In this document: positions 5,055 to 25,305 of the stretch, piece by piece
Numbering within the stretch: position 1 is the first letter of the stretch
Layout: every line of letters begins with the position of its first letter
Assembly: GCA_034189385.1 (NCBI GenBank)
Contig: JAXHVD010000018.1
Coordinates: forward strand, 1 to 64,000
Direction: 5' to 3'
Origin: Thermodesulfobacteriota bacterium
GTDB lineage: Bacteria; Desulfobacterota; Desulfobacteria; Desulfobacterales; C00003060
Length of the DNA stretch: 64,000 bases
Translations under genes and position numbers: made by a program
The notes under the pieces: model-generated
Database searches by the model: none
What the model saw: only the letters and a program-made list of their open reading frames with translations
Told to the model about the DNA's origin: nothing

Positions 5055-5083
5055 TTGACAAGACACTTGAGGCAGAGTATGAA
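5055..5083 (+). promoter_or_regulatory. Putative sigma70 promoter for the JAB-E2-E1 operon
   Basis: TTGACA (5055-5060), 17-bp spacer, TATGAA (5078-5083), AT-rich upstream tract. Confidence 0.55.
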
Positions 5084-5183: not shown

Positions 5184-5211
5184 TGAGCACTATCGTTATC
5201 GATAGTGCTCA
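5184..5211. promoter_or_regulatory. Perfect 12-bp inverted repeat just upstream of the first operon gene's RBS
   Basis: TGAGCACTATCG-TTAT-CGATAGTGCTCA, followed by GGGGGG and ATG at 5224. Confidence 0.6.
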
Positions 5212-5223
5212 GGGGGGAAACTC

Positions 5224-6444
5224 ATGGACTCCCAGATCCAGAGATTAGATAAGCTACCGTACCTATCGATATTTTCGTCTGAAATTGAGGTTATGGCCGG
5301 ACTTGCCGTTGAGTGTGGCCAAGTTGAGACCGGAGGCGAGACATATGCCCTATTGAGCCAAGCTGGATACCCAGTAATCATGCTGGTGACCCCCCCTGGT
5401 CCGAATGCTGTGCACGAGTGGGCGCACTTCCGACAAGACCTTGAATTCTTTCGGAAGGTAAATCCGTTGCTTGAAAACGATTTTGGCCTGCAATACTCCG
5501 GCAGTTGGCACTGCCATCATTATCTTGGTATCAGGGGTCCTTCGGACGGAGATGTTCGGAGCACACACTCCATAGCTTTAAGGAACGGATACCGCATACA
5601 GAGCCAGATAGTGCTGACCTTTGAAAACGGCTACCATGGGCCGCCGCTTTCCCGGGGAAGCGCACCGTTCCGCCAGGAGCCGGCTGCTGAGACAGACAAC
5701 AGAGCTGTTAAGCAAAACACTTTTGTACGTCTAGTCAAAAGACGGCCTCTCCCTCCTGCCCCCAATGCATACGACCCTGCAGCCGTGCAGATCCACGCCT
5801 TTCTATATTTAAATGCCGCCAAAGGCAAACCCATGCGGTGCCCAATTCGAGTAATCCCTGGTATGAGCCCTTTCAGGGAGGCCATTGTAAAAACGTTCCC
5901 AGAATTACCTGAACTGGCTAAGGAAAAGTCATTTCCCATGTCGCGCATTGTACTGGACCACTTCCGGCAGGACGGGTTGGTGGGCACCCCCTCCGAGTTG
6001 CCTGCATCCTTGGCAACCCAGTACCTTGAACTTCCCATCCAGGTGAGAGAACGGGCCGGAGTTGCGTTCAAGTCAGGATTCGTCATTTTCTCACTTCCTT
6101 TGCCGGTACAAGGTGGCAGAGTCATGGTTTCGTGCAGCAACGCCCCACCATACGAAGCAAAAGCAGTCTACGCCACCTCGGTTTTGACGGCGAACAAACC
6201 TGTAGAGCTAACAAAGGATGTATTGGGACAGGCCTCTCGTGTAAGCCTAAGTGCTATTTACACCCGGGCTGTGGACTATGTGCGCCTCAACAGTCGCCAA
6301 AACGAACAAGGCAGCAATTTTGAGGATAATCGTCACAGGTTTCGCCGCCTTCAGCTGAAAAGAGTAAAGAGAAAGCTGCCTAGGCAATGGAAACAGCGGC
6401 TTTCACGTCAGACCTGTGAGGAGATACAGGATTGTCAGCCCTAA
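5224..6444 (+). CDS. JAB/MPN (JAMM) metallo-isopeptidase domain protein with uncharacterised C-terminal region
   Basis: ETGG and WHCHHYLGIRGPSDGD = E...HxH-x8-S-x2-D JAMM motif. Confidence 0.85.
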   Translation: MDSQIQRLDKLPYLSIFSSEIEVMAGLAVECGQVETGGETYALLSQAGYPVIMLVTPPGPNAVHEWAHFRQDLEFFRKVNPLLENDFGLQYSGSWHCHHYLGIRGPSDGDVRSTHSIALRNGYRIQSQIVLTFENGYHGPPLSRGSAPFRQEPAAETDNRAVKQNTFVRLVKRRPLPPAPNAYDPAAVQIHAFLYLNAAKGKPMRCPIRVIPGMSPFREAIVKTFPELPELAKEKSFPMSRIVLDHFRQDGLVGTPSELPASLATQYLELPIQVRERAGVAFKSGFVIFSLPLPVQGGRVMVSCSNAPPYEAKAVYATSVLTANKPVELTKDVLGQASRVSLSAIYTRAVDYVRLNSRQNEQGSNFEDNRHRFRRLQLKRVKRKLPRQWKQRLSRQTCEEIQDCQP

Positions 6445-6899
6445 GCTACAAAAAGAGACTCAGGACGGAGGCGGCGATCATGGCTGAAGAGATGCCCCAG
6501 TTCCGGCTGTTTCAAACAAGAAGCGGTGCCCACTACTTCAGGGGCTGGCAAAAAACCACAATCGGGGGAAGGAGCTATGAATTCAAGCTTGTCATACCCA
6601 TGCGATACCCGAATGAAATGCCGAGGTTGTATGTGATTTATCCAACAGAACTGTGGCAGCACGGCTTTCGGCGCTTGGTGAACACGGAGGGAGTTTCTCA
6701 CGGTTTTCACACCTTGGGAAACGGACCCGGAGGGTGTGTCCAGATCTGCCATTTCAAACCTGAACTCTGGGACGCATCCAGAACCTGCGTAGGCGTCTTC
6801 GCCAAAGGCCTACTCTGGCTTGAGGCGTACGAGGTCCACTTACGAGGCGGTAGGAGTATTGCCGATACCCTATCCGAATGGAAAAGGAGTCAACGATGA
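6432..6899 (+). CDS. Prokaryotic E2 (ubiquitin-conjugating enzyme-like) protein
   Basis: FKLVIPMRYPNEMPRLYV..P, H-T-L-G...VQICHF...W pattern matches the UBC fold (YP..PP, HPN...ICL...W) with a Cys at the catalytic position. TTG start with GAGGAG RBS. Confidence 0.8.
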   Translation: MSALSYKKRLRTEAAIMAEEMPQFRLFQTRSGAHYFRGWQKTTIGGRSYEFKLVIPMRYPNEMPRLYVIYPTELWQHGFRRLVNTEGVSHGFHTLGNGPGGCVQICHFKPELWDASRTCVGVFAKGLLWLEAYEVHLRGGRSIADTLSEWKRSQR

Positions 6900-7069
6900 G
6901 CAGAGAGGAGGACAGAATTCGACGAATTATGGAAGACATGGCAAGGGGGGATGATATTGGTCACAAGCTAGTTTATGACCGCGACAACAAAACGGTGCGC
7001 CCGGTCTCTCGCTTTCATGACCCAGACTGGGCCACATCTATAACGCCCTCTGATGCGGATTTGTTCTAA
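6896..7069 (+). CDS. 57-aa acidic peptide of unknown function between E2 and E1
   Basis: AAGGAG RBS and ATGA overlap with the E2 stop; MSREEDRIRR...TPSDADLF. Confidence 0.75.
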   Translation: MSREEDRIRRIMEDMARGDDIGHKLVYDRDNKTVRPVSRFHDPDWATSITPSDADLF

Positions 7070-7087
7070 GAAAGCGAAGGATCCATT

Positions 7088-8338
7088 GTGATCGTACTTT
7101 TCGGCGAAATGTTGCAGGGGCTTCGGGGAAACCGAGAATGCAAGGATGCCTACTTCGCATGCTGGCACGAGGAACTCGTGTATACCCTGCTTCCTGATGC
7201 GAGAAACAGCCGCGCAGTTCCCGGTAGTATTTGTGCAGCCAGTGATGACGAAGACATCTCGATCCAGGGCACCGGAAAACCCGACGACGAGGTAAGGGTT
7301 GTCGTGCACAGGGCAGGAAGTACGTCCGAAAAGGAAACAACTTCACTGCCGATAAAGGCTACTGGCCACGTGCGTGACAAGACAGGATGGAAGCGGGTAC
7401 CAGTTCAGATTGTTCCTGTCAGAGCTGAGCTCTTCTCCAGGTTTCGCGGCCTGCTTGAGACTCCCATTTTTTCCGACAAAATGGTGCTTGTGTTTGGCCA
7501 AGGGTCAGGTGGCTCTTTGGTAGCCCTGGAGCTGGCGAAATCAGGAGTCATGAACTTCAATTTGGTGGATGATGATCGTCTCGAGGTCGGCAACGTGGTC
7601 AGGCACGTGGCAGGTTTGTCACACGTCGGACGTTATAAGACCAAGGTTATGGCCGATTTGATACGAGAGAAGAATCCTTACGCGACAGTGGAAACATGGG
7701 AAGAGAAAGTCAGCTGGAAGAATGCTGAAGCGGTCAGAGATCTGGTGAGGAAAGCCGACATCATCGTCTGCGCCACGGACGAGCGTCAGTCGAAGCTTGT
7801 CATCAACAGGTTGTGCGTGGAGGAGAAAAAGCCTTGTGTCTTTGGCGGGGCTTTCAGACGGGCCTACGGAGGGCAAGTTCTTCTGCTCAGACCTTATGAG
7901 TCACCATGTTATCAGTGTTTCCTCATGCTGTTGCCGGATCATGCGGGGGACGAAGAAATATCCAGCCAGGAACAGGCAGATGGCCTCGCCTATACCGATC
8001 GACCCGTTCCGGTAGAACCGGGTCTTTCGACAGATATCGCACCCATCAGCATCATGGTGGTCAAGCTCGTGATCCAGGAACTGCTAAAAGGTACAGAAAC
8101 CACCCTCCGGTCCCTTGACGACGACCTAAAGGCGTCCTGGTATCTGTGGCTCAACAGACGTGAACTCGGAACCCAGTACGAGGGACTCCAACCTTTGGAA
8201 TTCAACGTGGGTGGCATGCATATTCTTCGGTGGTATGGGGTTGATGTGAAACGACATCCAGCCTGCCCGGTCTGCGGCAATTTCGAGGAGTGGCTGGCGA
8301 AGCAAAGGGATGCGGAGCCCCTTATCGCGTATGACTGA
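7088..8338 (+). CDS. E1/ThiF-family adenylating enzyme with extra ~125-aa N-terminal domain
   Basis: VLVFGQGSGGS nucleotide loop, DDDRLEVGNVVRH, GRYKT, CATD, and Zn pairs CYQC / CPVC. Confidence 0.92.
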   Translation: MIVLFGEMLQGLRGNRECKDAYFACWHEELVYTLLPDARNSRAVPGSICAASDDEDISIQGTGKPDDEVRVVVHRAGSTSEKETTSLPIKATGHVRDKTGWKRVPVQIVPVRAELFSRFRGLLETPIFSDKMVLVFGQGSGGSLVALELAKSGVMNFNLVDDDRLEVGNVVRHVAGLSHVGRYKTKVMADLIREKNPYATVETWEEKVSWKNAEAVRDLVRKADIIVCATDERQSKLVINRLCVEEKKPCVFGGAFRRAYGGQVLLLRPYESPCYQCFLMLLPDHAGDEEISSQEQADGLAYTDRPVPVEPGLSTDIAPISIMVVKLVIQELLKGTETTLRSLDDDLKASWYLWLNRRELGTQYEGLQPLEFNVGGMHILRWYGVDVKRHPACPVCGNFEEWLAKQRDAEPLIAYD

Positions 8339-8371
8339 TCACGGTAACCCTGGACCGTTAGCAAGGAAGAG

Positions 8372-11143
8372 ATGACGGAGCAGGTTCTAACATACCAGGT
8401 CTCAGAACTGCCAGATCCAAGGTATCCCCAATATCAGGCGATGGCAAGAGGAGACGTCTTGTCCTGTGCTTGTTCTGATATCGAGCAGCTACTCCGCGCG
8501 GTTGTCAACCTTCCTGCCGGTTCCACGTCGGTGGCGATCAGGTTCGTGTTCACTCCAAGACCAACACTAGCGGAGGCACAGAGCCGTCTGGCAATCTACG
8601 TGATTTGTCGAGCTCAAAATGAGACGATCGGTGATTGCCTGAGAGTGCTGTTTGAGAACGGACCGTTGACTAAGTACTACCGTCTTCAGCCGACGGAGGA
8701 ATTGCGGGCGCCGTCTAAAAGTCTGCAGGCAGGCTGCAGACTTTGCCGGCGCGAGGACGCCGTCGACCCGCTTCACACGTCTGAATTCAACAATAGAATT
8801 CCATCTTATTACTATACGGTGCGCTTGTTGGAGCCCAACGCCCACAACGATTATTCAGACCTTGATCGAACGCTCGGAGGCGTGAAGTCGAATGCTATTA
8901 TAGATGTGTGCGTGGAACCAACAGATATGTCACCAGAACTAAAAGCACATACCCGATACCTGTCCCGACTGCAGTCCATAAACAGGGTGTGGGATGTCGA
9001 TGAGGATGAAAGTTTCGAGATGACCGACTATTTTATGAGCGGTCAAGACTGGGCCACTATGGGGAATCAAGGTCTCAAGCCGCTGCGTTACCGGGACCCT
9101 CTGGCCGACGACATCCTTCGCTGTCAGCAACACTTCCATGAGAGCCTTCGTCAACCTCACCTGCTGTTTCACATTATGGTGCTGGCAGAGACTGCCGCTG
9201 TTGCGCACCTGATAGGATCAGTGGTGGCGGAGTCAGCCTTTCAAAATGGGAGCTATAGACTACTAGCATTCGGCAAGGATGCTCAGTTGTTCGATGAGGC
9301 CATTCAAAGTCTGAAGGTGACCCGCGTTTCATGGTCCTCCATTCATGAGTTCATCTTTCCGGGAAGAGATGTCGCACCCTACTTGGAACTTGCCCGCCTC
9401 AGCCATACTGCCACCGTGGATGAGCTTGCGGGCGCCTTCCGCCTGCCTGTGGCCGCTAGCGAGTCGCCCAGCTGCATTCGAAAAAACACCGATCCACCAT
9501 ATGAAGAAGTCTCAGACCTACTTGTGGCGGGTTTCGATCAGGAGGGCTCCCACGTTGGCAGGGGGCCACGTACCCGGGGCATGTGCAAGCATATGACAGG
9601 CACTGGCGCCTCCGGGTTCGGCAAGACCACAAACATTTGGAACATCGCACTTCAGCTCTTCAAAAACAATATTCCATTTCTAATCATAGAGCCAGTTAAG
9701 ACCGAATACAGGATACTGAAGACACTTCGAAATGAGGAGGACAAAAATGCGCGAGGTCTCGCCAAGGCGCTTGAACTGTACACGCCGGGCGACGAACGTA
9801 TTTCCCCATTCCGTCTGAATAGACTGTCACCCCAACCAGGCATGTCACTCGAAGAACACATCGAAAATACTCTGGCCTGTTTCCTGGCAGCCATGCCTGT
9901 CTCGGGACCGTTACCAGCGCTACTCAGAGAGGCGCTTGAGCGTGTCTATGAGGAATACCCTGATCCGGACAATCCTCCAATCATCGCTGACCTAGTTGCT
10001 TCCACCGAAAAGGTATTGGCGGAAAAGGCATACTCACCGGAGACGAGCTCGGACATCAGAGCAGCATTAGAGGTGAGAATAGGCATTCTCACGCACGGCA
10101 ACGTTGGTAAGATCTTTCAATGCCGCAAGAGCATCCCCTCCATTGACCACTTAATGAAAGTTCCGGCTATAGTAGAACTTGATCGGCTCCATCCCGAGTG
10201 GAGCTGCTTGTTGACTTTCTTTCTACTGACAGGCATCCGGGAATACTTAAGAACTGTTCCGAAGGCGGATAATGAGCCACGCTACGTAATCATTATCGAA
10301 GAAGCTCACAACATTGTAGGCCGAACCAGCCAGGCCGCGGTGTCGCCTGACGTTGCTGATCCGAGAGCATTCGCTTCAGAGTATGTCTGTCGCATGCTTG
10401 CCGAACTCCGAGCCCTTGGCGTTGGGATTGTCATTGTGGACACACTTCCGTCAGCAGTTGCTCCAGAGGTTATCAAGAACACAACGACAAAGATCGCCTT
10501 TCGCCAGGTGGCAAAAGAGGACCGTGAGGAGCTGGGTGCTTCCATGCTGTTGAACGAACTCGAGATGGAAGAGATGGCACGTCTGAACGTTGGCGAAGCA
10601 TTCATCTTCACTGAGGGCTACCATAGGCCACGGAGGATCCGGACGGTGAACCTCTATGAGCAATTTGACTTCACGACTGACACCATGAACGAGAACATCC
10701 TTCCGTATGTTCAGGATGACGCGTGGTTCTGTCAAGCCGAGTCTGAGAGATTGATCTCCGAGCTGACGCAGCTTCGAGAGGACATGGATCACTTCGACGA
10801 CCAGCGATTCGAGATTGCCAAGGACCTGGCGATCCTGCTGGCCCGTTTTCCTGCACTGTTAGCACAAACCGCCGGGGATAAGAATCCCACCGTAATGGAA
10901 CAGCTGAAACACGAGACACACGGTTTGAGAAGGCGCCTGTTATTTTCCTACCGGTCCTTCTTGAGGCGCTCATACAAGAAATACCTCGTCCCCGCGGGCT
11001 TGTGTGAGCGCCAGGCTCCAACGGTCCGAGAGATGCGTGAGCACTTGGTTGACCGTTTTGAGTCCTTTGTCAAGAAAGACATACAAGAGGTTCTCGGTAT
11101 ACTCGGCACATTTCTTCGCCGTTTAGAGACGAGCATGCTTTAG
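8372..11143 (+). CDS. HerA/FtsK-superfamily P-loop ATPase with large N-terminal domain
   Basis: Walker A GASGFGKTT, IEPVKTEY, Walker B IIIEEAHN, ELRALGVGIVIVDTLPS, VIKNTTTKIAFR. Confidence 0.85.
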   Translation: MTEQVLTYQVSELPDPRYPQYQAMARGDVLSCACSDIEQLLRAVVNLPAGSTSVAIRFVFTPRPTLAEAQSRLAIYVICRAQNETIGDCLRVLFENGPLTKYYRLQPTEELRAPSKSLQAGCRLCRREDAVDPLHTSEFNNRIPSYYYTVRLLEPNAHNDYSDLDRTLGGVKSNAIIDVCVEPTDMSPELKAHTRYLSRLQSINRVWDVDEDESFEMTDYFMSGQDWATMGNQGLKPLRYRDPLADDILRCQQHFHESLRQPHLLFHIMVLAETAAVAHLIGSVVAESAFQNGSYRLLAFGKDAQLFDEAIQSLKVTRVSWSSIHEFIFPGRDVAPYLELARLSHTATVDELAGAFRLPVAASESPSCIRKNTDPPYEEVSDLLVAGFDQEGSHVGRGPRTRGMCKHMTGTGASGFGKTTNIWNIALQLFKNNIPFLIIEPVKTEYRILKTLRNEEDKNARGLAKALELYTPGDERISPFRLNRLSPQPGMSLEEHIENTLACFLAAMPVSGPLPALLREALERVYEEYPDPDNPPIIADLVASTEKVLAEKAYSPETSSDIRAALEVRIGILTHGNVGKIFQCRKSIPSIDHLMKVPAIVELDRLHPEWSCLLTFFLLTGIREYLRTVPKADNEPRYVIIIEEAHNIVGRTSQAAVSPDVADPRAFASEYVCRMLAELRALGVGIVIVDTLPSAVAPEVIKNTTTKIAFRQVAKEDREELGASMLLNELEMEEMARLNVGEAFIFTEGYHRPRRIRTVNLYEQFDFTTDTMNENILPYVQDDAWFCQAESERLISELTQLREDMDHFDDQRFEIAKDLAILLARFPALLAQTAGDKNPTVMEQLKHETHGLRRRLLFSYRSFLRRSYKKYLVPAGLCERQAPTVREMREHLVDRFESFVKKDIQEVLGILGTFLRRLETSML

Positions 11144-11149
11144 GAGGAT

Positions 11150-11674
11150 GTGGTTATGGCAAAACGGAGAGATATTCCTTCAAGACGCGATGTCAATGAG
11201 AGACTTGAATGTGACAAGAGGAAGATGGAGGCCAAAGAGACTGATCTGGACAAGATAGCATCAGATGTTGAAACGGTTAGAAGAACCTTGGAAAGACTCG
11301 ATTTTCGCGGAACCGCAGAGGGCTCCAGAGAAGCAGAAGAATCTATTGAAGGCGCAGAGGATGTTGCAACAGATGCGTTCGATAAAGAAGACGGCGCCTT
11401 GGAACGCATCCAGACTCACAATCGGGAGTTCGGGGCAGAGCTTGATGACCGAAAAGGGGCGTCAGAGTCTGATCTGAAAAAGGTGACTGATGTGACCGCC
11501 AGCATCAATAGAAATGAGGTTGGAGATAAGTTGAAAAAAGCCAAGGAGGCGGTTTTGAGCGATGTCAATTTTCTTGCTGCGCAGATTGAACGGGCTCGTG
11601 CAGCAAGGGAACGAAGTGATGCGATCCAGGAAAGGCTTAAAGGCCGGGTTCAGAAGGGAAGAAGGAAACGCTAG
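11150..11674 (+). CDS. Coiled-coil/helical hypothetical protein
   Basis: AGGAGG RBS; highly charged heptad-rich sequence. Confidence 0.75.
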   Translation: MVMAKRRDIPSRRDVNERLECDKRKMEAKETDLDKIASDVETVRRTLERLDFRGTAEGSREAEESIEGAEDVATDAFDKEDGALERIQTHNREFGAELDDRKGASESDLKKVTDVTASINRNEVGDKLKKAKEAVLSDVNFLAAQIERARAARERSDAIQERLKGRVQKGRRKR

Positions 11675-11675
11675 C

Positions 11676-12293
11676 GTGCCATCAATTAAATACAGGAACC
11701 AGAATAGCTCTGGGAAAGACCACGACCTTTCCTTTGAAGATGTGGGCCCCTTCATGACCCATACGGACAAAGTGCTGGCCCAACTAGCCCAAAAAGTTAG
11801 GGTGTTGCCTAAGGTCGATGAAAAGGGTCGTTCTGAATGTCCGTTTGCAGAAGACCTTTATGCCGCCAAAGAAGAGGCTGCAGAAAAGGTCCGTGAAGTG
11901 CTCGATAAGATGCCAGGATACCTGCGCGCGGTAGACCGAGAGATACTCAGATGCAAACGTAATCTCGCTCAGGTTCGCAGCGACGCCGCTTCCCTTCATC
12001 TGGATAAAGCACAAGGGAAGTACCACAGCGCACAGGAAAATTACCGTTTTCAGCACAAAAAATACATGCAGGTTCGGCAGAGACTGATTGATCTGCGATC
12101 CCAAGCTCAGAAGGCACTCCAGAAGGCCTGTGCCAATAAGTGGCCGGCAGGTAAACCCCAAAAAAAGTTTCATGGTTCAGCGCCAGCAAGAATTGCACCC
12201 GCTTCACACGCCAAGGGATCACTTGGACCATCGTTGGCGACCGAGGTCAATAGCCTGTTGTCGCTGGATCATTTCAGTCGAAAGGACGTTTAA
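11676..12293 (+). CDS. Basic coiled-coil hypothetical protein
   Basis: Probable GTG start right after the previous stop (ORF track 11562..12293); helical, charged. Confidence 0.65.
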   Translation: MPSIKYRNQNSSGKDHDLSFEDVGPFMTHTDKVLAQLAQKVRVLPKVDEKGRSECPFAEDLYAAKEEAAEKVREVLDKMPGYLRAVDREILRCKRNLAQVRSDAASLHLDKAQGKYHSAQENYRFQHKKYMQVRQRLIDLRSQAQKALQKACANKWPAGKPQKKFHGSAPARIAPASHAKGSLGPSLATEVNSLLSLDHFSRKDV

Positions 12294-12294
12294 G

Positions 12295-17071: not shown

Positions 17072-17777
17072 CAAACGCCTGTACTTCATTCCCATCATAG
17101 CGCGTGCGCTTGAGAGTGACCACCCACGCAAAGCCATGCGAGAGGCCTTCGACAGAATCTACAAACTCGGCAAACAACCCGAGTACAGGCTGGGATTTCG
17201 TCAGTTCCAGGACTTTGCACAGGCGGCGCTGAAGTCATTGGTCCAAAGACCTCAGAAGGGAGATGAACAAACACTCGATGTGGTCTATCCTTTAGTATAC
17301 GATCTGGCAACCGATACCTTCGAGGGGAGGGAAAAGCAAAAGGAAACCCTCTTAACCGCACTGAGTAGTCATCCTGAGTGGCTCGCACAGTACCGAAGCA
17401 TCAAAGAAGAGGCTCAAGAGCTTCTAGCCACCAAAATGTTGATTGAGGTTGAAGTTTTAAGAGAGGAGGTGGTTGTCGGCTCATTTTCTGTTTCCGCCAC
17501 TCCAGCGTACCTGAGTTCGATTATCCCAGGCGAATATACGGTTCGTCTTTCAAACGGAAGAGTTCTCTGGCAGGGGGAAATCAGCAGCGAGGACGTCATA
17601 TGGGCTTTCGCATTTCCAGGCAAAGACCTGGCCATGGCGGCAGAGACTGAAATGCCCAAGCAGAAACCAACGAGAACGCTGTCTCTTATGGCCGGAGAGC
17701 TAATTCTGGACTTCTTTGCTGGGCTTGAAAGTGGCAGCATAGGACTGAGAAAGGCCCAACGAGTCCAAGAGGAATAG
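17061..17777 (+). CDS. Hypothetical protein (possible partner of the upstream HTH protein)
   Basis: Overlaps the upstream stop; helical N-half, beta-rich C-half. Confidence 0.6.
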   Translation: MPNSKRLYFIPIIARALESDHPRKAMREAFDRIYKLGKQPEYRLGFRQFQDFAQAALKSLVQRPQKGDEQTLDVVYPLVYDLATDTFEGREKQKETLLTALSSHPEWLAQYRSIKEEAQELLATKMLIEVEVLREEVVVGSFSVSATPAYLSSIIPGEYTVRLSNGRVLWQGEISSEDVIWAFAFPGKDLAMAAETEMPKQKPTRTLSLMAGELILDFFAGLESGSIGLRKAQRVQEE

Positions 17778-17784
17778 GCAGACT

Positions 17785-19452
17785 ATGATCGGCAGGGCAA
17801 AAACGGTAGTTATTGTCCTACAGCCGGCGGATGAGCGCCCGGCCTTGGTGACTGAAATCATAGCACGGATTTCTGATAATGGTGAGGGTGATCGTCTGGT
17901 CTTTCGCGGGCCAGTCAGCTTCAAGGCTGGAACCAGGCAACATTTGCGCTCAGTGGTCCTACCTATCATTGACAACATCAGAGATCACCTGGCTGTACCA
18001 AGGATGAATTATAAGATCTCAGCCGTAAACCTAGGTGCCACGGCATCGCATGGCCTGGGGCTTGAGATCTGCGGATTCTCTGCAGATCTTCCCGTGTTGC
18101 TTGCTCTACTGTCTGCTTCGTTTAGGGTGACTCTTAAGGAAGATATAGTGAGCACCGGGCACGTTGCGTCGCTGGATGGTGACGTTGTGCCTGTCAGCGG
18201 AATCTCAGTGAAGCTTGAAGCAGTACTTGCGTCGCAAGAAGTGTCCGCCTTTGTAATTCCTGACCTGGGAAAGGACCGATCCTCACAGTTGCTGACACCT
18301 GTAGAATACAAATCAGCACAAGAGAGTCTGCTTCGCCACAAAGGCGACATAAAGATTCATACCATCAATGGTGTGGACGATGCCGTACGGATCTTCATGA
18401 CCGATGAATCGATAGTCCTGGGCAGTTTAAAAGCCGGGTTCTTTGATGCCAAACCGGCTGTGGCTGACCCCCAGAGTCCGGTGAACAGAAGCGTGAAGTT
18501 GCTTGTTGATGACAATGAAAAGAGGTTCTGGAAACTTGTTTCAGATTCTCTTTTGAATCGGCGCATCGGAAAAGCCAGGTCTGCTCTTCAAGACTATGTT
18601 GATTTCCACATCACAGACCACTGCTATCCCAAAAGGTTTGGTGAACATTTGCTTCGCCTGGTGATCTCTCTGCCGCCCTCGATACTTAAGCTTGATGATG
18701 TTTTCCCGCTGGTTCCGATGGAGTCATACATCAGGCTCACTCAGTTTGCTCAAAAATGTGATTACCAGGATGTTCGGCAGCTTCACAAAGCGCTATTCGG
18801 CGAGGGAGTTGGGACTGTCCGTCATTCCACAGTCAAGTCCGTCGCGAAACAGCCATGCGAAGGTGATAACCAAACCGAGTTGTTTGAAAGGCTCATGGCC
18901 GAACTGAGCGAAGAGAACCTCGCCAAGAAGGTCGGGCAGCCGCTGGACAAAGCCCGGGCGAGTTACATAGCGGAAGCAGTTACGGTTAAGGACAGCTTTG
19001 AATTCAATGATACGATCACCAGCTTCTACGCTCACATGTTACGCCACACGTCCTCACCGGCAGGAACCGTGAAGAAAACTGCCATTTCTGCTGAAGCCAT
19101 TGACCTAGTGTCAAAGGCTTTTAACCCCAAAGGAGGCTACAGGGCTGCTCTCGCCGAGGGGCGGCACGCCACAAATGGCGGGATGCGCCGGGTCTTCGAT
19201 GGCATGACGGAATGTCTCAAGCAAGTAGCAAGAGAGAAGTACATCAACAGGATTTTCAAAGAAACAGTGGACCCGCGCGACTGGGATGCCAAGGTTAAGC
19301 TCATGGAGGCATTCATGGGCGGCATCGGAAAGGAGTTGCCAGCTGACCTGCAAGGGCTGCCTGCAAAGCAGCTTGCAGGTCATTGGGAGACGATCATAGA
19401 GCATTACGGCAGACTGAAAGCAGAAATCTCAGATCTGCTGAAAAGGCTTTGA
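17785..19452 (+). CDS. Lon/S16-type protease domain fused to helical domains (no AAA+ module)
   Basis: ICGFSADLPVLLALLSA...IVSTGHVASLDGDVVPVSGISVKLEA matches Lon DGPSAG...TGEI.L.G.V.P.GG..EK, with the Ser-Lys dyad positions retained. C-terminal ~190 aa is paralogous to the next genes. Confidence 0.72.
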   Translation: MIGRAKTVVIVLQPADERPALVTEIIARISDNGEGDRLVFRGPVSFKAGTRQHLRSVVLPIIDNIRDHLAVPRMNYKISAVNLGATASHGLGLEICGFSADLPVLLALLSASFRVTLKEDIVSTGHVASLDGDVVPVSGISVKLEAVLASQEVSAFVIPDLGKDRSSQLLTPVEYKSAQESLLRHKGDIKIHTINGVDDAVRIFMTDESIVLGSLKAGFFDAKPAVADPQSPVNRSVKLLVDDNEKRFWKLVSDSLLNRRIGKARSALQDYVDFHITDHCYPKRFGEHLLRLVISLPPSILKLDDVFPLVPMESYIRLTQFAQKCDYQDVRQLHKALFGEGVGTVRHSTVKSVAKQPCEGDNQTELFERLMAELSEENLAKKVGQPLDKARASYIAEAVTVKDSFEFNDTITSFYAHMLRHTSSPAGTVKKTAISAEAIDLVSKAFNPKGGYRAALAEGRHATNGGMRRVFDGMTECLKQVAREKYINRIFKETVDPRDWDAKVKLMEAFMGGIGKELPADLQGLPAKQLAGHWETIIEHYGRLKAEISDLLKRL

Positions 19453-19473
19453 AGAAAAGCCAGGGAGGAGAAA

Positions 19474-20055
19474 ATGGGCTCACTGGAATATCTGCTCACC
19501 GCAACAGATGAGATGGCTATCGCCAGAAGCGTGGGAAGTCCTCACGATGAGGCACGCATGCGTTATGCTCTCCACAGCAACAGTGTAGAGAGTTTTGAGG
19601 AATTCACGGACGTGATTACCGATTACTACAACTACCACGTCGGTCGATGTGTAGTCCATGGGGGATATCTATCTCGTACTGAGGCAGCCGGGCGAGCCAA
19701 AGAAATCCTGGATCGAGAATACCGACGTCAGGGCGGAGACATAATCTCTGCCTACAAGGATGCCCGTGACGGCACCAGCGGCGGTTTGAGAGTGGTGTTG
19801 GATAGAATAGCAGAACATCTTAAGGCGGAATCAGTGGAGCGATATATTCGAGAGGCCTTTGACAGGTACGTGGAACCCAATTCATGGGAGCAGAAAGTGG
19901 ATATCATCCACCAGTTTATCGCCCAATGTGGCCAGCATCTCTCGTCCTCGATGCGCACAGACCAACCGGAAAGGTATGCCCACAATTATCAGGAACTCAT
20001 CAGGACGTATGTGGAATCGTTGAAGAAGACATCATCCGTTTTCAGACGGTTGTAA
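19474..20055 (+). CDS. Hypothetical all-helical protein, paralogue 2 of a local ~190-aa domain family
   Basis: GGAGGAG RBS; aligns by eye with the C-terminus of 17785..19452. Confidence 0.8.
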   Translation: MGSLEYLLTATDEMAIARSVGSPHDEARMRYALHSNSVESFEEFTDVITDYYNYHVGRCVVHGGYLSRTEAAGRAKEILDREYRRQGGDIISAYKDARDGTSGGLRVVLDRIAEHLKAESVERYIREAFDRYVEPNSWEQKVDIIHQFIAQCGQHLSSSMRTDQPERYAHNYQELIRTYVESLKKTSSVFRRL

Positions 20056-20069
20056 TTTAAGGGACTAAA

Positions 20070-20648
20070 ATGTCAACAAAACTCGAGCAACTTCTGGAAA
20101 GCATCGACCCGTCCCGGACCGTTGACGAAGTATCAGCCAGGGTAGACCAGGCCATTAATTCCTTCTCCGTGCAGAGAGCTATTATAGAGGACTGGAATGA
20201 ATACGAGAGTTTTCTCTCAGACTTCTACCGTCACCTGTTGACAACGGTGCTGAGAATCGGCTCCGGCGTCCCCGAAAACAGGGAATTGTACTGGAGTCAA
20301 TGCGCAGATCTTCTCAACAAGGCGTTTGGTACCAGCGGGCACAAGGCAGCCTTTGAGATGGTGAGGACTGGAAAAGAGGGGGGTCTGTATCAAGTCCTCA
20401 AGACCATTGGCGACCTGGTGGCGGAAAAATATGCGAAGAATGAAATTTCGGCGCGGATCTCCGACTACTGGCAAAGTCTCACCGTTGACGGACAGCTGGC
20501 AGCATCAGATGAATACCTGCAGCGATACGGTCACTTACTCCCCCAAGAACTGACTGAAGGGAGCGCTGCCAGGATCAGGGCGAACTTCCCAAAGGTGCTT
20601 GAAGAACACCCCAGCATGGTTCGTCGGATGAGACAAATTGGAAGGTAA
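20070..20648 (+). CDS. Hypothetical all-helical protein, paralogue 3
   Basis: Shares LE.LL, FY.H, GGL..VL and G..LP..L blocks with neighbours. Confidence 0.78.
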   Translation: MSTKLEQLLESIDPSRTVDEVSARVDQAINSFSVQRAIIEDWNEYESFLSDFYRHLLTTVLRIGSGVPENRELYWSQCADLLNKAFGTSGHKAAFEMVRTGKEGGLYQVLKTIGDLVAEKYAKNEISARISDYWQSLTVDGQLAASDEYLQRYGHLLPQELTEGSAARIRANFPKVLEEHPSMVRRMRQIGR

Positions 20649-20742
20649 TATGCAGCCTCCTTAGACTTCAGCTGAAACACACGTCCCCTTTCTGCCGCTT
20701 ACAGGTCACAAGCCACACTTAGGCGTAGAAAGGAGGAGGGCC

Positions 20743-23202
20743 GTGTCAGTTGAACAGTCTCTCATCGTCCAGGCGAGGCCCCATATGATGGCGGCAAGAG
20801 CAGAAGCGCTCTTGCGCCAGGAGGTTGCCAAGGGTTGTTCGCCAGACATAATGACAGGCCCTGTCGCCCTTGAACCACGTTACCTGCCCTTCACTGAAGC
20901 CCCCGAGCTCTTGTCAGGCCAAGTTCATGACAATCCCGTCCCCGAAGCGCTTTTCAAGCCCGGCGAACTTGTGCGAACCCAAATCTGGCTCTCCCCTGAA
21001 GAGGAATTCAGCTGGCTTCATTCAGAACTGTTTCTGAAACAACTTGGTAGTGCAAGCCACCGAATAGGATTTGAGATACTGGGTAACGTCCAGGGAATCC
21101 GGCTTCAGTTTCTAGTGCATCACAGAGACCTGCCCATCCTGGAAACGGCTTTCCGCGGGCACTTTGAGCGGTGCGAACTATCGGCTCCATCAGCTGTCCA
21201 CTCTGCGGGCATCACTGGAGAGCGCGGCGATGAAATCACATTCCTGGATTGCTATCCACCCCCTCCATATTCGCACCTCTTAACCCGTCCGGATGAGCTC
21301 AAGATTACAACGTATCAATCCCTGGTGGTGGCGCTGATGGGTATCGAACCCCCGGCCACGGGCTTCTACCAGGCACTTTTCCAGCCCGTCAACGCCCGCC
21401 ATTGCTGGCACCGTAACGTCAGGGTGCTGCTGGATATCGAGTATAACCTCAAACTAATCAGCGGCGTACAGCTACCCCAAAGGTACCTCCAGCAAGCCCC
21501 TTCCGGAGATTTGCACCACATGGCCCGGGAGCTGGAAACCAAGGCCCACAACGACAAGCCTCTCTACGCCCTGGCTCTGCGCATAGGGGTGGCATCGCCA
21601 GGCAAGGACGGCTCCGACCATGTCAAGGTTCTTGCCACATTCCTTAACCTTTTTCAGCACGGCGGCAGGCCGCTCAAGTACGTGACCGACAAAGACTACA
21701 GCGCAGTGCTTTCTCGGGACACGATTACGGAGATGTTCACCATTGGCGCCACCTATCGTCCAGGGTTCCTGGTCAACTCCGCAGAACTGACAGGGCCGGT
21801 GCACATCCCACCAGCGGAGATTTTAGAGTATCATAACCCGCCACTGCCAGTCCTTGAAACACTGCCTGTGCGAAATGCCAACCTCCATTCCGGGACTCCA
21901 ATAGGGACATGCGTGTATGCCGGTATTGAACAACCTGTCTGCATACCTCTTGATGTCCGCTCCAGGTCCACACACATTATCGGTAAACCCGGAACCACCA
22001 AGTCCACAACAATGGCCAGGATGGTGCTCGACGATATCGACAAAGGAATAGGTGTGGCGGTACTCGATCCCCACGGCGATTTGGTTGAGGCGCTTCTCTG
22101 CTTGATAAAGGAGAAGCACGTTGAAAGAACGATATACTTTGATCCTGGAGACCCTAATCATGTGCCGATATGGAATCCGCTGAAAAAGAGCGCCGGCCAG
22201 GATTTGAGTCGAACCGCAGACGATCTGGTGGCGGCCATCAAAAGCGTTGTTACGGGCTGGGGAGATCGTATGGAGCACCTGCTCAGACACGGCCTCTATG
22301 CGTTGCTTCAGCTGTCCGACAGCACGCTGCTTGACCTATCCAACCTACTTCGTCGCAAGACCGACGAGAGCGAGCGCCTGCGAAAAGAGATTCTCGATGT
22401 GGTTGATAACCAGACTGCTTACCTGTTCTGGAAGAACGATTTTAACCGTTATTCCAATGAGGCTTTGGATCCTCCCAAGCATAAGCTGAGCAAGCTTCTT
22501 GTCGCCGGCACAGTGTCGCTCATGCTCTCTCAGCCCGAGAGCCTGATCGACTTCCGCCAGGCCATGGACGAAGGGAAGGTTCTCCTCGTCAATCTTGCCA
22601 GGATTGGTTCCGAAGTACGAGAAATACTTGGATGTTTCATGCTCTCGCAATTCCACCTTATGGCTTTAGGCCGGAGCGACACTTCTGCTGCCAACCGCAG
22701 GCAGTTTCACATCTATGCCGATGAGGCTCACCGATTCATCACGGAAGCGCTGGAAGACCTCATCGCTGAGACAAGAAAGTTTGGCGTAAGCCTCACGCTT
22801 GCCCATCACTATCTGAGGCAATTCGCCGCCAGGCAGATTGACGCCCTGTCGAGCACAGCAGCTACCATTATTATGAATGTGGATTCAAATGACGCACGGC
22901 ACTTGACCAAAGACCTGCAAAATCTCGTTCACCGTGATGACTTAATCACGTTGGAGGTAGGAGAGGCAATAGCACGAATCGGCACAGATATTATCAGGTT
23001 TAAGACTCACGGTCCCTTGCAGATTCCCGAGCGCAACTTCAAAGCTGCAATCATCAAGCGCTCTCAAGATCTTTATTATAAGCCGGTGCACGCCGTGCAA
23101 AGCGCCATACGGCAACAGGACAATCGCTGGAACAGGACATTCTCACCGCTTACAGCCGCCAAAACCGGGGATGTCGAGGAGTTTTTCTATGATGAATTCT
23201 GA
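20743..23202 (+). CDS. VirD4/TrwB/HerA-like P-loop ATPase (type IV coupling-protein-like), no evident TM anchor
   Basis: RSTHIIGKPGTTKSTT (variant Walker A), GVAVLDPHGDL, WNPL, Walker B HIYADEAH, ETRKFGVSLTLAHHYLRQ. Confidence 0.82.
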   Translation: MSVEQSLIVQARPHMMAARAEALLRQEVAKGCSPDIMTGPVALEPRYLPFTEAPELLSGQVHDNPVPEALFKPGELVRTQIWLSPEEEFSWLHSELFLKQLGSASHRIGFEILGNVQGIRLQFLVHHRDLPILETAFRGHFERCELSAPSAVHSAGITGERGDEITFLDCYPPPPYSHLLTRPDELKITTYQSLVVALMGIEPPATGFYQALFQPVNARHCWHRNVRVLLDIEYNLKLISGVQLPQRYLQQAPSGDLHHMARELETKAHNDKPLYALALRIGVASPGKDGSDHVKVLATFLNLFQHGGRPLKYVTDKDYSAVLSRDTITEMFTIGATYRPGFLVNSAELTGPVHIPPAEILEYHNPPLPVLETLPVRNANLHSGTPIGTCVYAGIEQPVCIPLDVRSRSTHIIGKPGTTKSTTMARMVLDDIDKGIGVAVLDPHGDLVEALLCLIKEKHVERTIYFDPGDPNHVPIWNPLKKSAGQDLSRTADDLVAAIKSVVTGWGDRMEHLLRHGLYALLQLSDSTLLDLSNLLRRKTDESERLRKEILDVVDNQTAYLFWKNDFNRYSNEALDPPKHKLSKLLVAGTVSLMLSQPESLIDFRQAMDEGKVLLVNLARIGSEVREILGCFMLSQFHLMALGRSDTSAANRRQFHIYADEAHRFITEALEDLIAETRKFGVSLTLAHHYLRQFAARQIDALSSTAATIIMNVDSNDARHLTKDLQNLVHRDDLITLEVGEAIARIGTDIIRFKTHGPLQIPERNFKAAIIKRSQDLYYKPVHAVQSAIRQQDNRWNRTFSPLTAAKTGDVEEFFYDEF

Positions 23203-23821
23203 TCACGCCAAGGCGCTCAAGAAGGTTGTTAATGTAATTTTTGAGCTTCTTACGGAGGAGCGGATCTCCAGTGAAATAGATGAGCCCATCGAGCTGGCCG
23301 CTCAGAGTTTTCGCTTCAAAGCCCCGAAGCGTATTTCCCATCCGGTCTTCAACAGGGTAATTGCCGGATTTGTCCGCCACATCTACGAAAAAGGGATTCG
23401 CCTACGACGGTATCTTTCTGAAAAAGAGGCTCTGGGAGAAGCCATTTTTCTCGTTCAACATGTCTCAAACCTTGATCAGGCAGCGGATTACGAGACAAAT
23501 TTGGTCAATGTGACGAACAAGAAGCTGGAAGGCCTTGAGCTGGTTCTGTCAGAGCTGGCAGAGACGATAAAGGCCTTGGAAAGGCAAAAGTATATTGAAT
23601 GGGTCTTCGCCTACCACGTTGATCAACTGGACTGGAAGACACGCTGCTTTATCGTCGAGACCTATTTTGAGGAAAACAAAGCAATCCTTCCCCCTCAACT
23701 GCTGGACTTGGATCCTGCCCAACTTGCCTTGCACTGGCGCGACCTGATCATTAACCACCTGTCCACAGATCGGCTCGTCAAACAGGTCCTTGGTTCTGAT
23801 GGGCCCATTCGATTCGACTGA
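23189..23821 (+). CDS. Hypothetical all-helical protein, paralogue 4
   Basis: GAGGAG RBS before ATG 23189; RQKYIEWVF..VD..DW and LPPQL.DL.PAQLA.HW closely match REKYINRIF..VDP.DW and LPADL.GL.AKQLA.HW in 17785..19452. Confidence 0.8.
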   Translation: MMNSDHAKALKKVVNVIFELLTEERISSEIDEPIELAAQSFRFKAPKRISHPVFNRVIAGFVRHIYEKGIRLRRYLSEKEALGEAIFLVQHVSNLDQAADYETNLVNVTNKKLEGLELVLSELAETIKALERQKYIEWVFAYHVDQLDWKTRCFIVETYFEENKAILPPQLLDLDPAQLALHWRDLIINHLSTDRLVKQVLGSDGPIRFD

Positions 23822-25014: not shown

Positions 25015-25305
25015 ATGGCTATTATGGAAGAATACCTGACTGTAAGGGAACTGAGCGAGCGGATCAAATTCTCAAAACGGACTTTGTACAACTTGATCTA
25101 TGAAGGGATTCTTGTGCGAGGGAAACATTACATAAAGCCAAGGCCTAAGAAGATTCTATTCAAATGGTCGGCCATCCAAGCATGGATCGAACAACCCCTA
25201 GGCTCAGAGGACGAAGCCCCCTGTGAACCTCGCCTAGGAGACACTCCTGCTGCGTCAAGTGAGATGCTTTGTTCAAACCAGCCCAAGAGCTCGATCAACA
25301 TCTAA
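25015..25305 (+). CDS. Excisionase/AlpA-like HTH DNA-binding protein
   Basis: YLTVRELSERIKFSKRTLYNLI winged-HTH, directly upstream of the integrase. Confidence 0.8.
   Translation: MAIMEEYLTVRELSERIKFSKRTLYNLIYEGILVRGKHYIKPRPKKILFKWSAIQAWIEQPLGSEDEAPCEPRLGDTPAASSEMLCSNQPKSSINI

Follow-up and report, generated by a model that had tools for sequence, protein, structure and literature searches.

The window considered here is the whole stretch of 64,000 nucleotides (nt) analysed from contig JAXHVD010000018.1 of a Thermodesulfobacteriota bacterium, and our subject is a dense block of genes that begins at position 5224. From there to position 23821 lie 16 open reading frames (ORFs), all on the plus strand and all where an earlier sequence-only reading had placed them, as a ubiquitination-like core coupled to other modules. 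They encode, in order, a JAB metallopeptidase, an E2-like protein, a small acidic protein (pep63), an E1-like enzyme, a HerA-type ATPase, two coiled-coil proteins (cc174 and cc243), a WD40-TPR protein, a TPR kinase, a sigma-factor-like protein (o408) and its partner (o238), a Lon protease fused to a helical "hel" domain (LonHel), two stand-alone hel paralogues (hel193 and hel192), a TrwB-like ATPase and a third paralogue (hel216). Nearly all of the domain labels proposed from the letters alone were borne out by orthologue alignments and by family scans with Pfam and PADLOC on 26 ORFs (641-28921) and NCBIfam on 22 ORFs; the E2 label is weak. Genes overlap by 1-32 nt at six junctions, namely JAB/E2, E2/pep63, WD40-TPR/kinase, kinase/o408 (4 nt), o408/o238 (11 nt) and TrwB/hel216 (32 nt), and the remaining intergenic gaps measure 1-33 nt, with the exception of 94 nt ahead of the TrwB-like gene. 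The tight spacing described earlier stands, except that an overlap of the two coiled-coil genes is improbable, cc243 being predicted to start at a GTG (11676) that sits right behind the cc174 stop. The coordinates of all features are collected in Table 1.

The order of the block is conserved in 89 further loci, at protein identities of roughly 25-67%. These comparison loci comprise 41 metagenomic loci from an alignment search with the WD40-TPR protein and 48 species-genome loci from an alignment search with hel193, and they include near-duplicates such as L036/L089, L086/L087, L007/L010 and L061/L064. The proteins of the window were mapped onto them by tblastn; the window itself was not counted in the synteny, and each junction count uses only loci with sequence long enough to hold the neighbour. 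The species-genome loci span at least six phyla, and their record titles name Planctomycetota (Pirellulales, Phycisphaerae), Thermodesulfobacteriota/Desulfobacteraceae, Zixibacteria, Ignavibacteria, Bacteroidales, Pelobacter and Pontiella. Two strains with names are represented, Desulfocarbo indianensis SCBM by two short contigs and Pontiella sulfatireligans F21 by part of the block. Co-occurrence elsewhere, the check that the sequence-only reading had proposed through gene neighbourhoods, is evident from adjacent-gene counts of 27/30 to 56/56 along most of the chain. Because the order is kept at such divergence in 89 loci, a chance assembly of genes is ruled out. The combination had been called unrecognised, and it remains so: no Pfam, NCBIfam, PADLOC or PHROGs model matches the gene set as a whole, and no description of it was found in the literature searched. 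Borne by an element, the gene block is real, widespread and so far undescribed.

Table 1. Features of the block and its right flank, with positions counted from the first letter of the window.
Feature	Position	Strand	Remark
Putative sigma-70-type promoter TTGACA-N17-TATGAA, 5' of the first gene	5055..5083	+	read from the sequence, weak
Perfect 12-bp palindrome with 4-nt loop, directly 5' of the JAB ribosome-binding site	5184..5211	+	fold -33 kcal/mol, z -4.77
JAB/JAMM metallopeptidase (N-terminal 130 aa) and conserved C-terminal domain	5224..6444	+	fold of the C-terminal domain without match
E2/UBC-like protein	6432..6899	+
pep63, small acidic conserved protein	6878..7069	+	57 aa counted from the second ATG
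E1-like adenylating enzyme	7088..8338	+	one ThiF domain and two CxxC pairs
HerA/FtsK-type ATPase	8372..11143	+	N-terminal domain of about 400 aa without match, P-loop core, helical tail
cc174, coiled-coil protein	11150..11674	+	no family
cc243, coiled-coil protein	11676..12293	+	start at GTG 11676
WD40 beta-propeller, TPR and conserved C-terminal domain	12295..14211	+	GTG start at 12295
Zn-ribbon Ser/Thr kinase with TPR tail	14211..15848	+
o408, sigma-factor-like	15845..17071	+	sigma2-like 33-190, insert, sigma4-like helix-turn-helix 263-390
o238, partner of o408	17061..17777	+	N-terminal helices, beta-rich C-terminal part
LonHel, Lon (S16) protease domain without ATPase	17785..19452	+	helical middle part, C-terminal hel domain
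hel193, stand-alone helical paralogue	19474..20055	+	invariant C-terminus FRRL
hel192, second helical paralogue	20070..20648	+
ECF-type promoter-like motif CTGAAAC-N16-CCGCTTA	20672..20701	+	42 nt 5' of the TrwB-like gene
TrwB/VirD4 (T4CP)-like ATPase	20743..23202	+	N-terminal DUF8128-like domain, conserved YDE[FLH] C-terminus
hel216, third stand-alone helical paralogue	23171..23821	+
ECF-type promoter-like motif CTGAAAC-N16-CCGCAAA	23818..23847	+	63 nt 5' of the PrimPol ATG
PrimPol (AEP primase-polymerase)	23910..24971	+	AEP-TOTE 9.2e-36; conserved-block member beyond the earlier bounds
Excisionase-type helix-turn-helix protein	25015..25305	+	HTH_17 3.2e-8; TIGR01764 1.2e-5
Tyrosine integrase	25374..26756	+	Arm-DNA-bind_2 2.8e-16, Phage_integrase 3.4e-11, phrog_1 2.5e-46
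tRNA-Arg(ACG), likely integration site	26842..26917	-	ARAGORN
Amino acids, aa; extracytoplasmic function, ECF; type IV coupling protein, T4CP; archaeo-eukaryotic primase, AEP.

Synteny resolves the block into three layers. The first is an invariant core (15845-24971) consisting of o408, o238, the Lon-hel protease, hel193, hel192, the TrwB-like ATPase, hel216 and a primase-polymerase, PrimPol. Its junctions are nearly without exception: o408 is followed by o238 in 41/41 loci, o238 by LonHel in 46/46, LonHel by hel193 in 56/56, hel193 by hel192 in 55/55, hel192 by the TrwB-like gene in 39/42, the latter by hel216 in 32/35, and hel216 by PrimPol in 31/31. Since the core extends from o408 to PrimPol, the block runs beyond 23821; the bounds drawn in the sequence-only reading enclosed genes that are all present, but they closed too early. 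The second layer is an accessory module (8372-15848) of the HerA-type ATPase, the two coiled-coil proteins, the WD40-TPR protein and the TPR kinase, whose internal order and junction with the core are also largely kept (HerA to cc174, 33/39; cc174 to cc243, 39/41; cc243 to WD40-TPR, 42/42; WD40-TPR to kinase, 28/38; kinase to o408, 27/30). The third is an optional top layer (5224-8338) of JAB, E2, pep63 and E1. Where it occurs, its order is fixed (JAB to E2, 9/9; E2 to E1, 9/9; E1 to HerA, 10/10); however, E1 was found 5' of HerA in just 9 of 21 informative loci, and the ubiquitination-like enzymes, once proposed as the core, cannot hold that place.

The accessory module was never found away from the core, and some elements do without it. 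Downstream of the WD40-TPR gene, o408 follows within 6 kb in 32 of the 38 loci anchored on WD40-TPR; of the other six, two are divergent (L043, L067), two have a contig end inside the kinase gene (L006, L011), and the last two are L034 and L044. The module is oriented away from the core in five loci (L043, L056, L063, L067, L079). Elements in which it is missing have other genes in its place, namely Type I restriction-modification (R-M) genes (L072, L084), a NACHT NTPase (L088) or an AAA ATPase (L096). The top layer is attached to HerA and never to the core, with the one exception of L077, in which a DUF2357 gene adjoins divergent JAB, E2 and pep63 genes at the position of the accessory module. 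Additional variants comprise an AAA (PF00004) ATPase with several small ORFs without family in L022 (3763-6891) and L038 (3229-6078), and a proteasome-subunit gene in L013 (12604-13218), which hint at further proteolysis-related options within the family.

An alignment of the spacers between hel192 and the TrwB-like gene reveals a bipartite word, cTGAAAC-N16-CCGCT(a/t)t. It combines a -35-like GAAAC with a CG-rich, -10-like element at a spacing of 16 nt, a form that we take to resemble ECF-sigma promoters of the TGAAAC-N16-CGT kind. Counted as TGAAA[CT]-N16-[CT]CGC in fixed upstream windows, with the window's own locus included, the motif lies 5' of the TrwB-like gene in 32 of 43 loci (shuffle mean 0.03) and 5' of PrimPol in 25 of 34 (shuffle mean 0.08). 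Ahead of the other genes it is essentially missing: JAB 1/9, o408 0/45, HerA 0/22, LonHel 0/47, hel193 0/59, WD40-TPR 0/57, kinase 0/33 and E1 0/7. The same pattern has exactly two matches in the 64-kb window, at 20673 and 23819, and the stricter form CTGAAAC-N16-CCGC has five in the 4.13-Mb genome, against one for a reversed control. As promoter-like elements, the two motifs set a TrwB-hel216 unit and a PrimPol unit apart from the upstream genes. The remaining three genome matches (G000:C12:158039, C19:56006 and C22:27477) may be due to chance, the reversed control having given one, or may mark additional targets of the sigma-like factor.

Catalytic motifs, as judged from the alignments, are intact in JAB, E2, E1, both ATPases, the kinase and the Lon protease. 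Within the core, the structural model of o408 is of moderate confidence (predicted local distance difference test score, pLDDT, 70.5). About half of its best 50 VIA-align rows are sigma factors at Z 4.5-6.7, among them ShbA (Z 6.7), pro-sigma-K (6.3), SigB (6.1) and SigW (5.7), with further rows for SigL, sigma-32, SigK, SigH, CnrH, WhiG, SigR and others; residues 33-190 align to sigma2 and residues 263-390 to sigma4, in the right order and at low Z. A Foldseek search of the model on the PDB returned nothing at E <= 0.001. For its partner o238, no Atlas feature match was obtained and the structure rows reached a template modelling (TM) score of at most 0.33; the protein is a candidate anti-sigma factor and protease substrate. 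The Lon domain matches LonB (1xhk) by profile at 1e-6, with a Ser-Lys dyad (S99 and K143) invariant in 11 sequences, and the C-terminus of LonHel matches hel193 at 9e-22.

The hel domain has four copies, all confined to this locus within the 4.13-Mb genome. The hel193 model is of high quality (pLDDT 90.3) and comprises nine helices, and no solved relative was found: the best Foldseek match has an E value of 0.87, no PDB sequence-profile match was obtained, and the best wide VIA-align row (Z 6.3, root-mean-square deviation 7.1 A, 140 residues aligned) lies within that tool's range for helical models without a relative. A profile search of 1.84 billion cluster representatives gave 2047 matches at E <= 0.001, 1605 at 1e-10 and 442 at 1e-30, so that, by sequence profile, the family appears common in environmental data. 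The idea that hel is an adaptor fused to varied effectors found no support in the best 150 of the 2047 matches, almost every one of which is a stand-alone protein of about 190 aa.

The TrwB-like ATPase matches TrwB_AAD_bind at 1.1e-7 (score 31.5 against a cut-off of 20.5 bits; up to 1e-10 in orthologues), DUF87 at 1.7e-6 and phrog_5156 at 2.7e-35, and its orthologues additionally match T4SS-DNA_transf and TraG-D_C. Its N-terminal 385 residues resemble DUF8128 clusters (Atlas feature score 0.92-0.95, TM 0.66-0.73), which often bear DUF87, TrwB_AAD_bind or TraG-D_C domains. PrimPol scores 124 bits against AEP-TOTE, for which the cut-off is 27, and matches a CRISPR-associated PrimPol of PADLOC at 4.8e-33.

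In the accessory module, the HerA-like ATPase matches HerA (4d2i) by profile at 3e-6 and also defence-linked HerA chains; DUF87 was found in 7 of 10 orthologues, and PADLOC assigns mad8 at 9e-17. Compared by BLASTP, the HerA-like (HerA923) and TrwB-like (TrwB819) proteins show no significant likeness outside the P-loop region (E 0.076). The protein cc243 combines a conserved LPxVDxxGxSECPFAE box, a coiled coil, a disordered linker and a C-terminal h-x-h-G-P motif, which reads SLDHF in the window. The WD40-TPR protein has 17 homologues among 5.8 billion clusters, and both of its repeat types are clear in the orthologue from L043 (WD40 5.5e-15, TPR_12 7e-5). The kinase matches Pkinase at 1.3e-36 and TPR_2 at 1.2e-8, and its architecture differs by locus, L021 carrying a fusion of Sigma70_r2, zf-HC2 and kinase, and L043 a kinase-FGE-sulfatase fusion. 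Because L021 fuses a sigma/anti-sigma part to the kinase, the accessory module is tied to sigma signalling.

In the top layer, JAB matches PADLOC JAB at 6e-7 (Prok-JAB 0.0024 in the orthologue from L019), and the JAMM motif residues E35, H96, H98, S107 and D110 are invariant in eight orthologues. The E2 assignment is weak (PADLOC E2 0.0032; profile match of the N-terminal half to Ubc6 at E 0.017), with H90, H93, C106 and H107 invariant across orthologues. The E1 gave ThiF 7.9e-36 in Pfam, profile matches to ThiF at 6.7e-23 and to Cap2 at 1.2e-11, and PADLOC E1-E2 models at 2.4e-33. It has 416 aa with a single ThiF domain at 131-334 and invariant C274/C277 and C393/C396. Six of the nine loci that have E2 also have pep63, which ends in DLF rather than Gly-Gly and, in L006 and L015, forms an in-frame N-terminal fusion with E1.

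As the sequence-only reading had held, no beta-grasp ubiquitin-like protein (Ubl), ThiS/MoaD, sulfur-transfer or CD-NTase match was obtained with family models in the ORFs scanned. A substrate for E1 and E2 was sought by comparing the C-termini of all 15 families. Two of them have tails that look Ubl-like, cc243 ("SLGPLG plus 0-10 residues") and cc174 ("RVHxGKR"), and no conserved C-terminal glycine correlates with the presence of E1. The cc243 glycine occurs in 6 of 11 loci with E1 and likewise in L021, which lacks E1, and the cc174 glycine is present in E1-less L086, L087 and L100; both were dropped as evidence of an E1-linked substrate and are retained as a lead. The cc243 glycine motif is missing from the window copy. 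Ahead of the top layer, the palindrome at 5184..5211 was equalled in stability by none of 200 shuffles and could, judging from its position and fold, be an operator or a hairpin in the 5' untranslated region. The sigma-70-type site at 5055..5083 was not returned by a consensus scan of 4850-24800, which itself performed at chance level for sigma-70 promoters and terminators (15 vs 12.7 and 23 vs 20.9).

The tRNA-linked integrative element suspected earlier is confirmed by the integrase, the excisionase and the tRNA-Arg that flank the block on the right. A survey of the 5 kb downstream of PrimPol covered 28 loci and 49 of 69 ORFs; distal ORFs were excluded, as was L087, a near-identical counterpart of L086. 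A recombinase lies within 5 kb 3' of PrimPol in 17 of the 28 loci (16 tyrosine recombinases of several subtypes and one serine recombinase). A ribonucleotide reductase lies directly 3' of PrimPol in 12 of 28 (L055, L056, L063, L070, L072, L078, L079, L086, L089, L094, L098 and L100), ten being class II enzymes with a TSCPD domain and two NrdD with NrdG, accompanied in L055 by a dCTP deaminase. The reductase genes stand between PrimPol and the recombinase, and according to record titles at least 10 of these 12 loci belong to Planctomycetota or its orders. In G181, a genome of the window's phylum, the block ends with PrimPol, a small ORF, a 421-aa ORF and a tmRNA gene; the counterpart of the 421-aa ORF in L092 has weak integrase-family matches. 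Between the integrase stop and the tRNA-Arg of the window, at 26752-26790, a repeat finder returned a single structure, three tandem copies of the 11-nt unit TTTAGGCATGA, the last differing by one base; from its position, it may represent arm-type recombinase binding sites.

The distribution of the block is sporadic. Among 400 genomes of the window's phylum, true relatives of the WD40-TPR protein occur in three, and in none of the 13 from the same order. The hel193 protein is found in the same three genomes, with one additional distant match, an ORF in another genome (G049:C16:2094-2630, E 3e-24) in which WD40-TPR is without a match at E <= 1e-5 and PrimPol at E <= 1e-10; this ORF may mark a remoter variant of the family. 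PrimPol relatives with 55% identity are confined to two of the 400, G181 and G306, both of which carry the block, whereas 43 other genomes have distant AEP domains only, mostly in ORFs of 500-1000 aa. Because close PrimPol relatives occur only with the block, PrimPol is a dedicated member, and recombinases are exchanged.

On the left, the island end is undefined because no att repeat was found on that side. In the 641-2952 region, a solute-binding protein gene (SBP_bac_5) ends at 1855, its match ending at profile position 326 of 368, and an rve-type insertion sequence (IS) transposase lies on the opposite strand at 1873-2952. The IS may have interrupted the SBP_bac_5 gene, and it may likewise obscure where the island ends on the left. 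Just 5' of the block, a 147-aa ORF on the minus strand (4392-4835) matches the C-terminal PD-(D/E)xK-like part of PDC-S69 and HEAT_CxxC_PD-DEXK, both PADLOC candidates, at about 3e-8; it also has weak matches to phage endonuclease families, and tblastn relatives lie in 2 of the 89 loci (L090, L096). Elsewhere in the window, AT skew in 2-kb bins rises to 0.23 (48001-50000) and to 0.10-0.15 (56001-62000) and is close to zero in the other bins.

Our preferred reading, to which we assign a probability of about one half, is that the block forms the body of integrative elements that belong to an undescribed family and have tRNA or tmRNA genes as their targets, and that in these elements a protease-gated sigma switch turns on a DNA translocase and a primase-polymerase. 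It builds on a block that is conserved and modular and has its catalytic residues, on two promoter-like motifs that are themselves conserved, and on the link to recombinases. In the proposed sequence of events, the early genes, from JAB to hel192, would be made constitutively, and o238 would keep o408 inactive. The WD40 and TPR repeats would sense a signal that the kinase and a HerA complex relay, and, where present, E1/E2/JAB would tune it by conjugating some component, so that both upper layers would feed the switch. The signal would then activate the ATPase-less Lon protease, which would remove o238, and freed o408 would bring RNA polymerase to the two ECF-type promoters (cTGAAAC-N16-CCGCT). 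Induction of the TrwB-like translocase with hel216, and of PrimPol with downstream genes (ribonucleotide reductase, excisionase, integrase), would follow, and element DNA would replicate and move, either as escape of the element or as an abortive response to infection. We infer that o408 reads the motifs because it is the only sigma-like protein in the block, that its invariable and here overlapping partner o238 inhibits it, and that the neighbouring Lon protease removes o238, a logic described for CalpL/CalpT/CalpS. The block may serve defence or the life cycle of the element.

Several observations weigh against this reading. The Z scores of o408 (at most 6.7) fall within the range stated by the tool for helical models that lack a true relative; no Sigma70_r2 or Sigma70_r4 match was obtained in Pfam at E <= 0.01; and hhalign of o408 against the three ECF sigma factors of the genome aligned 18 columns only, over a 4.2-like helix-turn-helix, at a probability of 2.6%. 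The partner o238 resembles no known anti-sigma factor and has neither a family match nor a PDB profile match, and the Lon protease is tied to it by gene order alone. Ahead of the TrwB-like gene, 11 of 43 loci lack the motif, and ahead of PrimPol, 9 of 34 do. In about 12 loci, the word recurs at one fixed position within the o408 coding sequence; because it overlaps conserved D-C-R codons, that copy may be a coding by-product. As for the element itself, no att repeat marks its left end (blastn-short of the tRNA-Arg end against 1-6000 gave at most 11 nt), and family scans of the block revealed no relaxase, type IV secretion system (T4SS), capsid or packaging genes; a Replic_Relax gene was seen in one surveyed locus only, L056. 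Finally, the R-M and NACHT neighbours, together with the PADLOC matches (HerA, mad6, mad8, JAB and CRISPR-associated PrimPol), would suit a defence island equally well.

This last point leads to the most serious alternative, in which the block as a whole, with PrimPol, forms a single large system of anti-phage or anti-plasmid defence that tends to reside in mobile defence islands. WD40/TPR, kinase and HerA would sense infection, the sigma switch would induce the TrwB-like ATPase and PrimPol as effectors directed at the DNA of the invader or the host (abortive infection), and E1/E2/JAB would prime or restrain the response, like Cap2/Cap3 of type II CBASS (cyclic oligonucleotide-based antiphage signalling system). 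The domain-level PADLOC matches extend to JAB, E1-E2, HerA, mad8, mad6/PD-T4-6 kinases and the CRISPR-associated PrimPol (4.8e-33), and PrimPol, which is never found away from the block, belongs to a Pfam family named for a conflict system, AEP-TOTE. R-M and NACHT genes adjoin the core in other loci, sensor architectures vary, and modules are optional, as with the AAA ATPases of L022 and L038 and the proteasome subunit of L013. The sporadic distribution, with 3 of 400 phylum genomes, 0 of 13 in the order and several phyla, would also fit. Nevertheless, no recognisable toxic effector (nuclease, TIR, Sir2 or pore former) emerged from the Pfam and PADLOC scans, and no named defence-system model fits the whole set. 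The family of the TrwB-like protein is annotated as conjugative DNA transfer proteins, and the adjacency of excisionase and integrase, with ribonucleotide reductases between PrimPol and the integrase, resembles element replication genes. We consider this alternative unlikely. The earlier proposal of a conflict or signalling system was right in that the genes co-occur as a set, but conflict is one reading among others because E1/E2/JAB is not the core and the block is tied to recombinases (17/28) and often to reductases (12/28); a switch in the life cycle of an element fits the core at least as well.

A bolder extension of the element switch, which we regard as rather doubtful, is a mobile signalling machine of a new kind. 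Repeat-based sensing, Ser/Thr phosphorylation, ubiquitin-like conjugation of a substrate that is not a beta-grasp protein (with the cc243 tail and pep63 as candidates) and proteolysis by Lon would converge on an element-borne sigma factor, which would fire a T4CP-like pump and a primase-polymerase. Such a device would act as an "escape or suicide" switch under infection or stress, wired by a helical adaptor fold of 190 residues, not seen before, in four copies.

It is quite unlikely, in our view, that the core, from o408 to the integrase, is simply the backbone of an element and that the HerA/WD40-TPR/kinase and E1/E2/JAB modules are independent defence cargo in a hotspot for such genes, without a signalling link. 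Type I R-M, NACHT or AAA genes do occupy the same position in other elements, the accessory module is divergent from the core in five loci, and E1/E2/JAB always sits on HerA (E1 to HerA, 10/10) and, L077 excepted, never on the core. Against this, the accessory module was never found apart from the core, with o408 within 6 kb in 32 of 38 WD40-TPR-anchored loci; in addition, the kinase and o408 genes overlap by 4 nt in the window, and in L021 the kinase is fused to a sigma/anti-sigma part.

A provirus or satellite of a new kind is very improbable. The HerA-like or the TrwB-like ATPase would package DNA, as FtsK/HerA ATPases do in some virus lineages, and some of the unassigned proteins (the beta-rich part of o238, the hel proteins, the coiled coils) would be structural; the ribonucleotide reductase and dCTP deaminase genes next to PrimPol and the match of the TrwB-like protein to phrog_5156 (2.7e-35) would be in keeping with this. 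However, no capsid, portal, terminase or tail family was found in the block, the kinase, WD40, E1/E2 and Lon proteins are not virion parts, and two IMG/VR queries, the WD40-TPR alignment and the TrwB-like protein, returned no relative. Least tenable of all is a ubiquitination-like pathway as the core, with kinase, protease and ATPases as accessories: although the JAB, E2 and E1 catalytic motifs are conserved and their genes head the operon in a strict order (JAB to E2, 9/9; E2 to E1, 9/9; E1 to HerA, 10/10), E1 is missing 5' of HerA in 12 of 21 informative loci that keep the remaining block, no Ubl was found, and no C-terminal glycine correlates with E1.

If the preferred reading of a protease-gated sigma switch on an integrative element holds, the block defines a widespread element family without prior description. 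It would also provide a second case of Lon-gated sigma signalling, outside CRISPR, and a non-CBASS setting in which E1/E2/JAB acts as an optional regulator without a ubiquitin-like protein. Several of its protein parts have no structural or family match, namely hel, o238, cc174, cc243 and the C-terminal domains of the JAB and WD40-TPR proteins. The circuit is directly testable, as its proposed parts are all in hand: the sigma-like factor with its candidate inhibitor, the protease dedicated to it, and the two candidate promoters mapped ahead of a DNA translocase and a primase-polymerase. The loci in Desulfocarbo indianensis SCBM and Pontiella sulfatireligans F21 make bench work conceivable.

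The block brings together known kinds of system, namely the integrative element, protease-gated sigma signalling and the optional E1/E2/JAB regulator. Its integrase (25374-26756) adjoins tRNA-Arg, as expected of integrative mobile elements, although att direct repeats were not found in 1-6000. Integrative elements with int-xis-primase modules are familiar, as are induction switches of the ImmR/ImmA type in integrative and conjugative elements (ICEs). The block shares with them a PrimPol-excisionase-integrase set beside a tRNA or tmRNA gene, a protease and regulator pair that could gate genes, and a T4CP-like ATPase. It differs from them in having a sigma-like regulator rather than a repressor, four paralogous helical proteins and a sensory module with kinase, WD40 and HerA, and in that no relaxase, T4SS or packaging genes were seen. 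With the T4CPs VirD4, TrwB and TraG, the TrwB-like ATPase shares the TrwB/TraG-type P-loop domain. Those proteins have an N-terminal membrane anchor and partner relaxase and T4SS genes, whereas here the N-terminus is a DUF8128-like domain and no relaxase or T4SS family occurs in the block. As with sigma-70 and ECF sigma factors, a bipartite promoter-like motif precedes the candidate targets, TrwB and PrimPol, with o408 as the putative reader.

Matches to MADS, the methylation-associated defence system, in which a methyltransferase accompanies the mad1-mad8 set, are at the domain level only, with mad6 for the kinase (NCBIfam MAD6 score 96.7 against a cut-off of 460), mad8 for both ATPases and mad1 for the excisionase helix-turn-helix, and no methyltransferase match was obtained in the scans. 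TOTE conflict systems (Aravind et al. 2022, described in PMC12458937), named for their TPR, OB, TBP and effector components, share with the block a PrimPol of AEP-TOTE and TPR proteins; neither the window proteins nor 23 orthologues scanned gave an OB/cold-shock, TBP or RNase H match.

For the top layer, two published settings offer themselves, both described in PMC10557695. In type II CBASS, the E1/E2/JAB set is likewise an optional regulatory add-on to a larger system, without a beta-grasp Ubl of its own, and a Cap3-like JAB peptidase is present in our block as well. Here, however, E1 and E2 are separate genes with pep63 between them, whereas Cap2 is an E1-E2 fusion, and the family scans gave no CD-NTase and no nucleotide-activated effector. 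BilABCD is arranged as Ubl-E2-deubiquitinase-E1, with a multidomain E1 comprising inactive and active adenylation domains and a CYS domain, and Bil Ubls may have coiled-coil N-terminal parts and a conserved glycine followed by at most nine residues. Our block resembles it in E1, E2 and a JAB deubiquitinase-like peptidase, and the cc243 tail in most loci recalls the Bil Ubl ends; it differs in its order (JAB-E2-pep63-E1), in the single adenylation domain of its 416-aa E1, and in giving no beta-grasp Ubl match.

For the core, the published parallel is CalpL/CalpT/CalpS, which is presented (10.1101/2024.05.08.593097) as a SAVED-Lon protease of type III CRISPR, an anti-sigma factor, and a sigma factor that is ECF-like. 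In both cases, an ATPase-less Lon-type protease with a Ser-Lys dyad stands beside a sigma-like protein and a small partner, and the output would be transcriptional. The block differs in that the 26 scanned ORFs (641-28921) gave no SAVED, CRISPR-Cas or cyclase match, Lon is fused here to a hel domain with profile matches to LonB/LonC chains (CalpL being absent among the matches listed), and o408 has double the size of an ECF sigma factor; candidate target promoters are identified here. At the level of overall design, the FtsH ternary systems (Kaur et al. 2020, PMC7159879) are the nearest published analogue. They combine Ubl conjugation, EAD1 adaptors and "multiple alpha-helical proteins not found anywhere else", and the block shares their beta-propeller protein, ATPases, JAB/E1/E2, peptidase effector and shared adaptor domain. 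It gave no vWA, MoxR, FtsH, RING E3, Ubl, caspase or EAD1 match, and its shared domain is a different fold of 190 aa.

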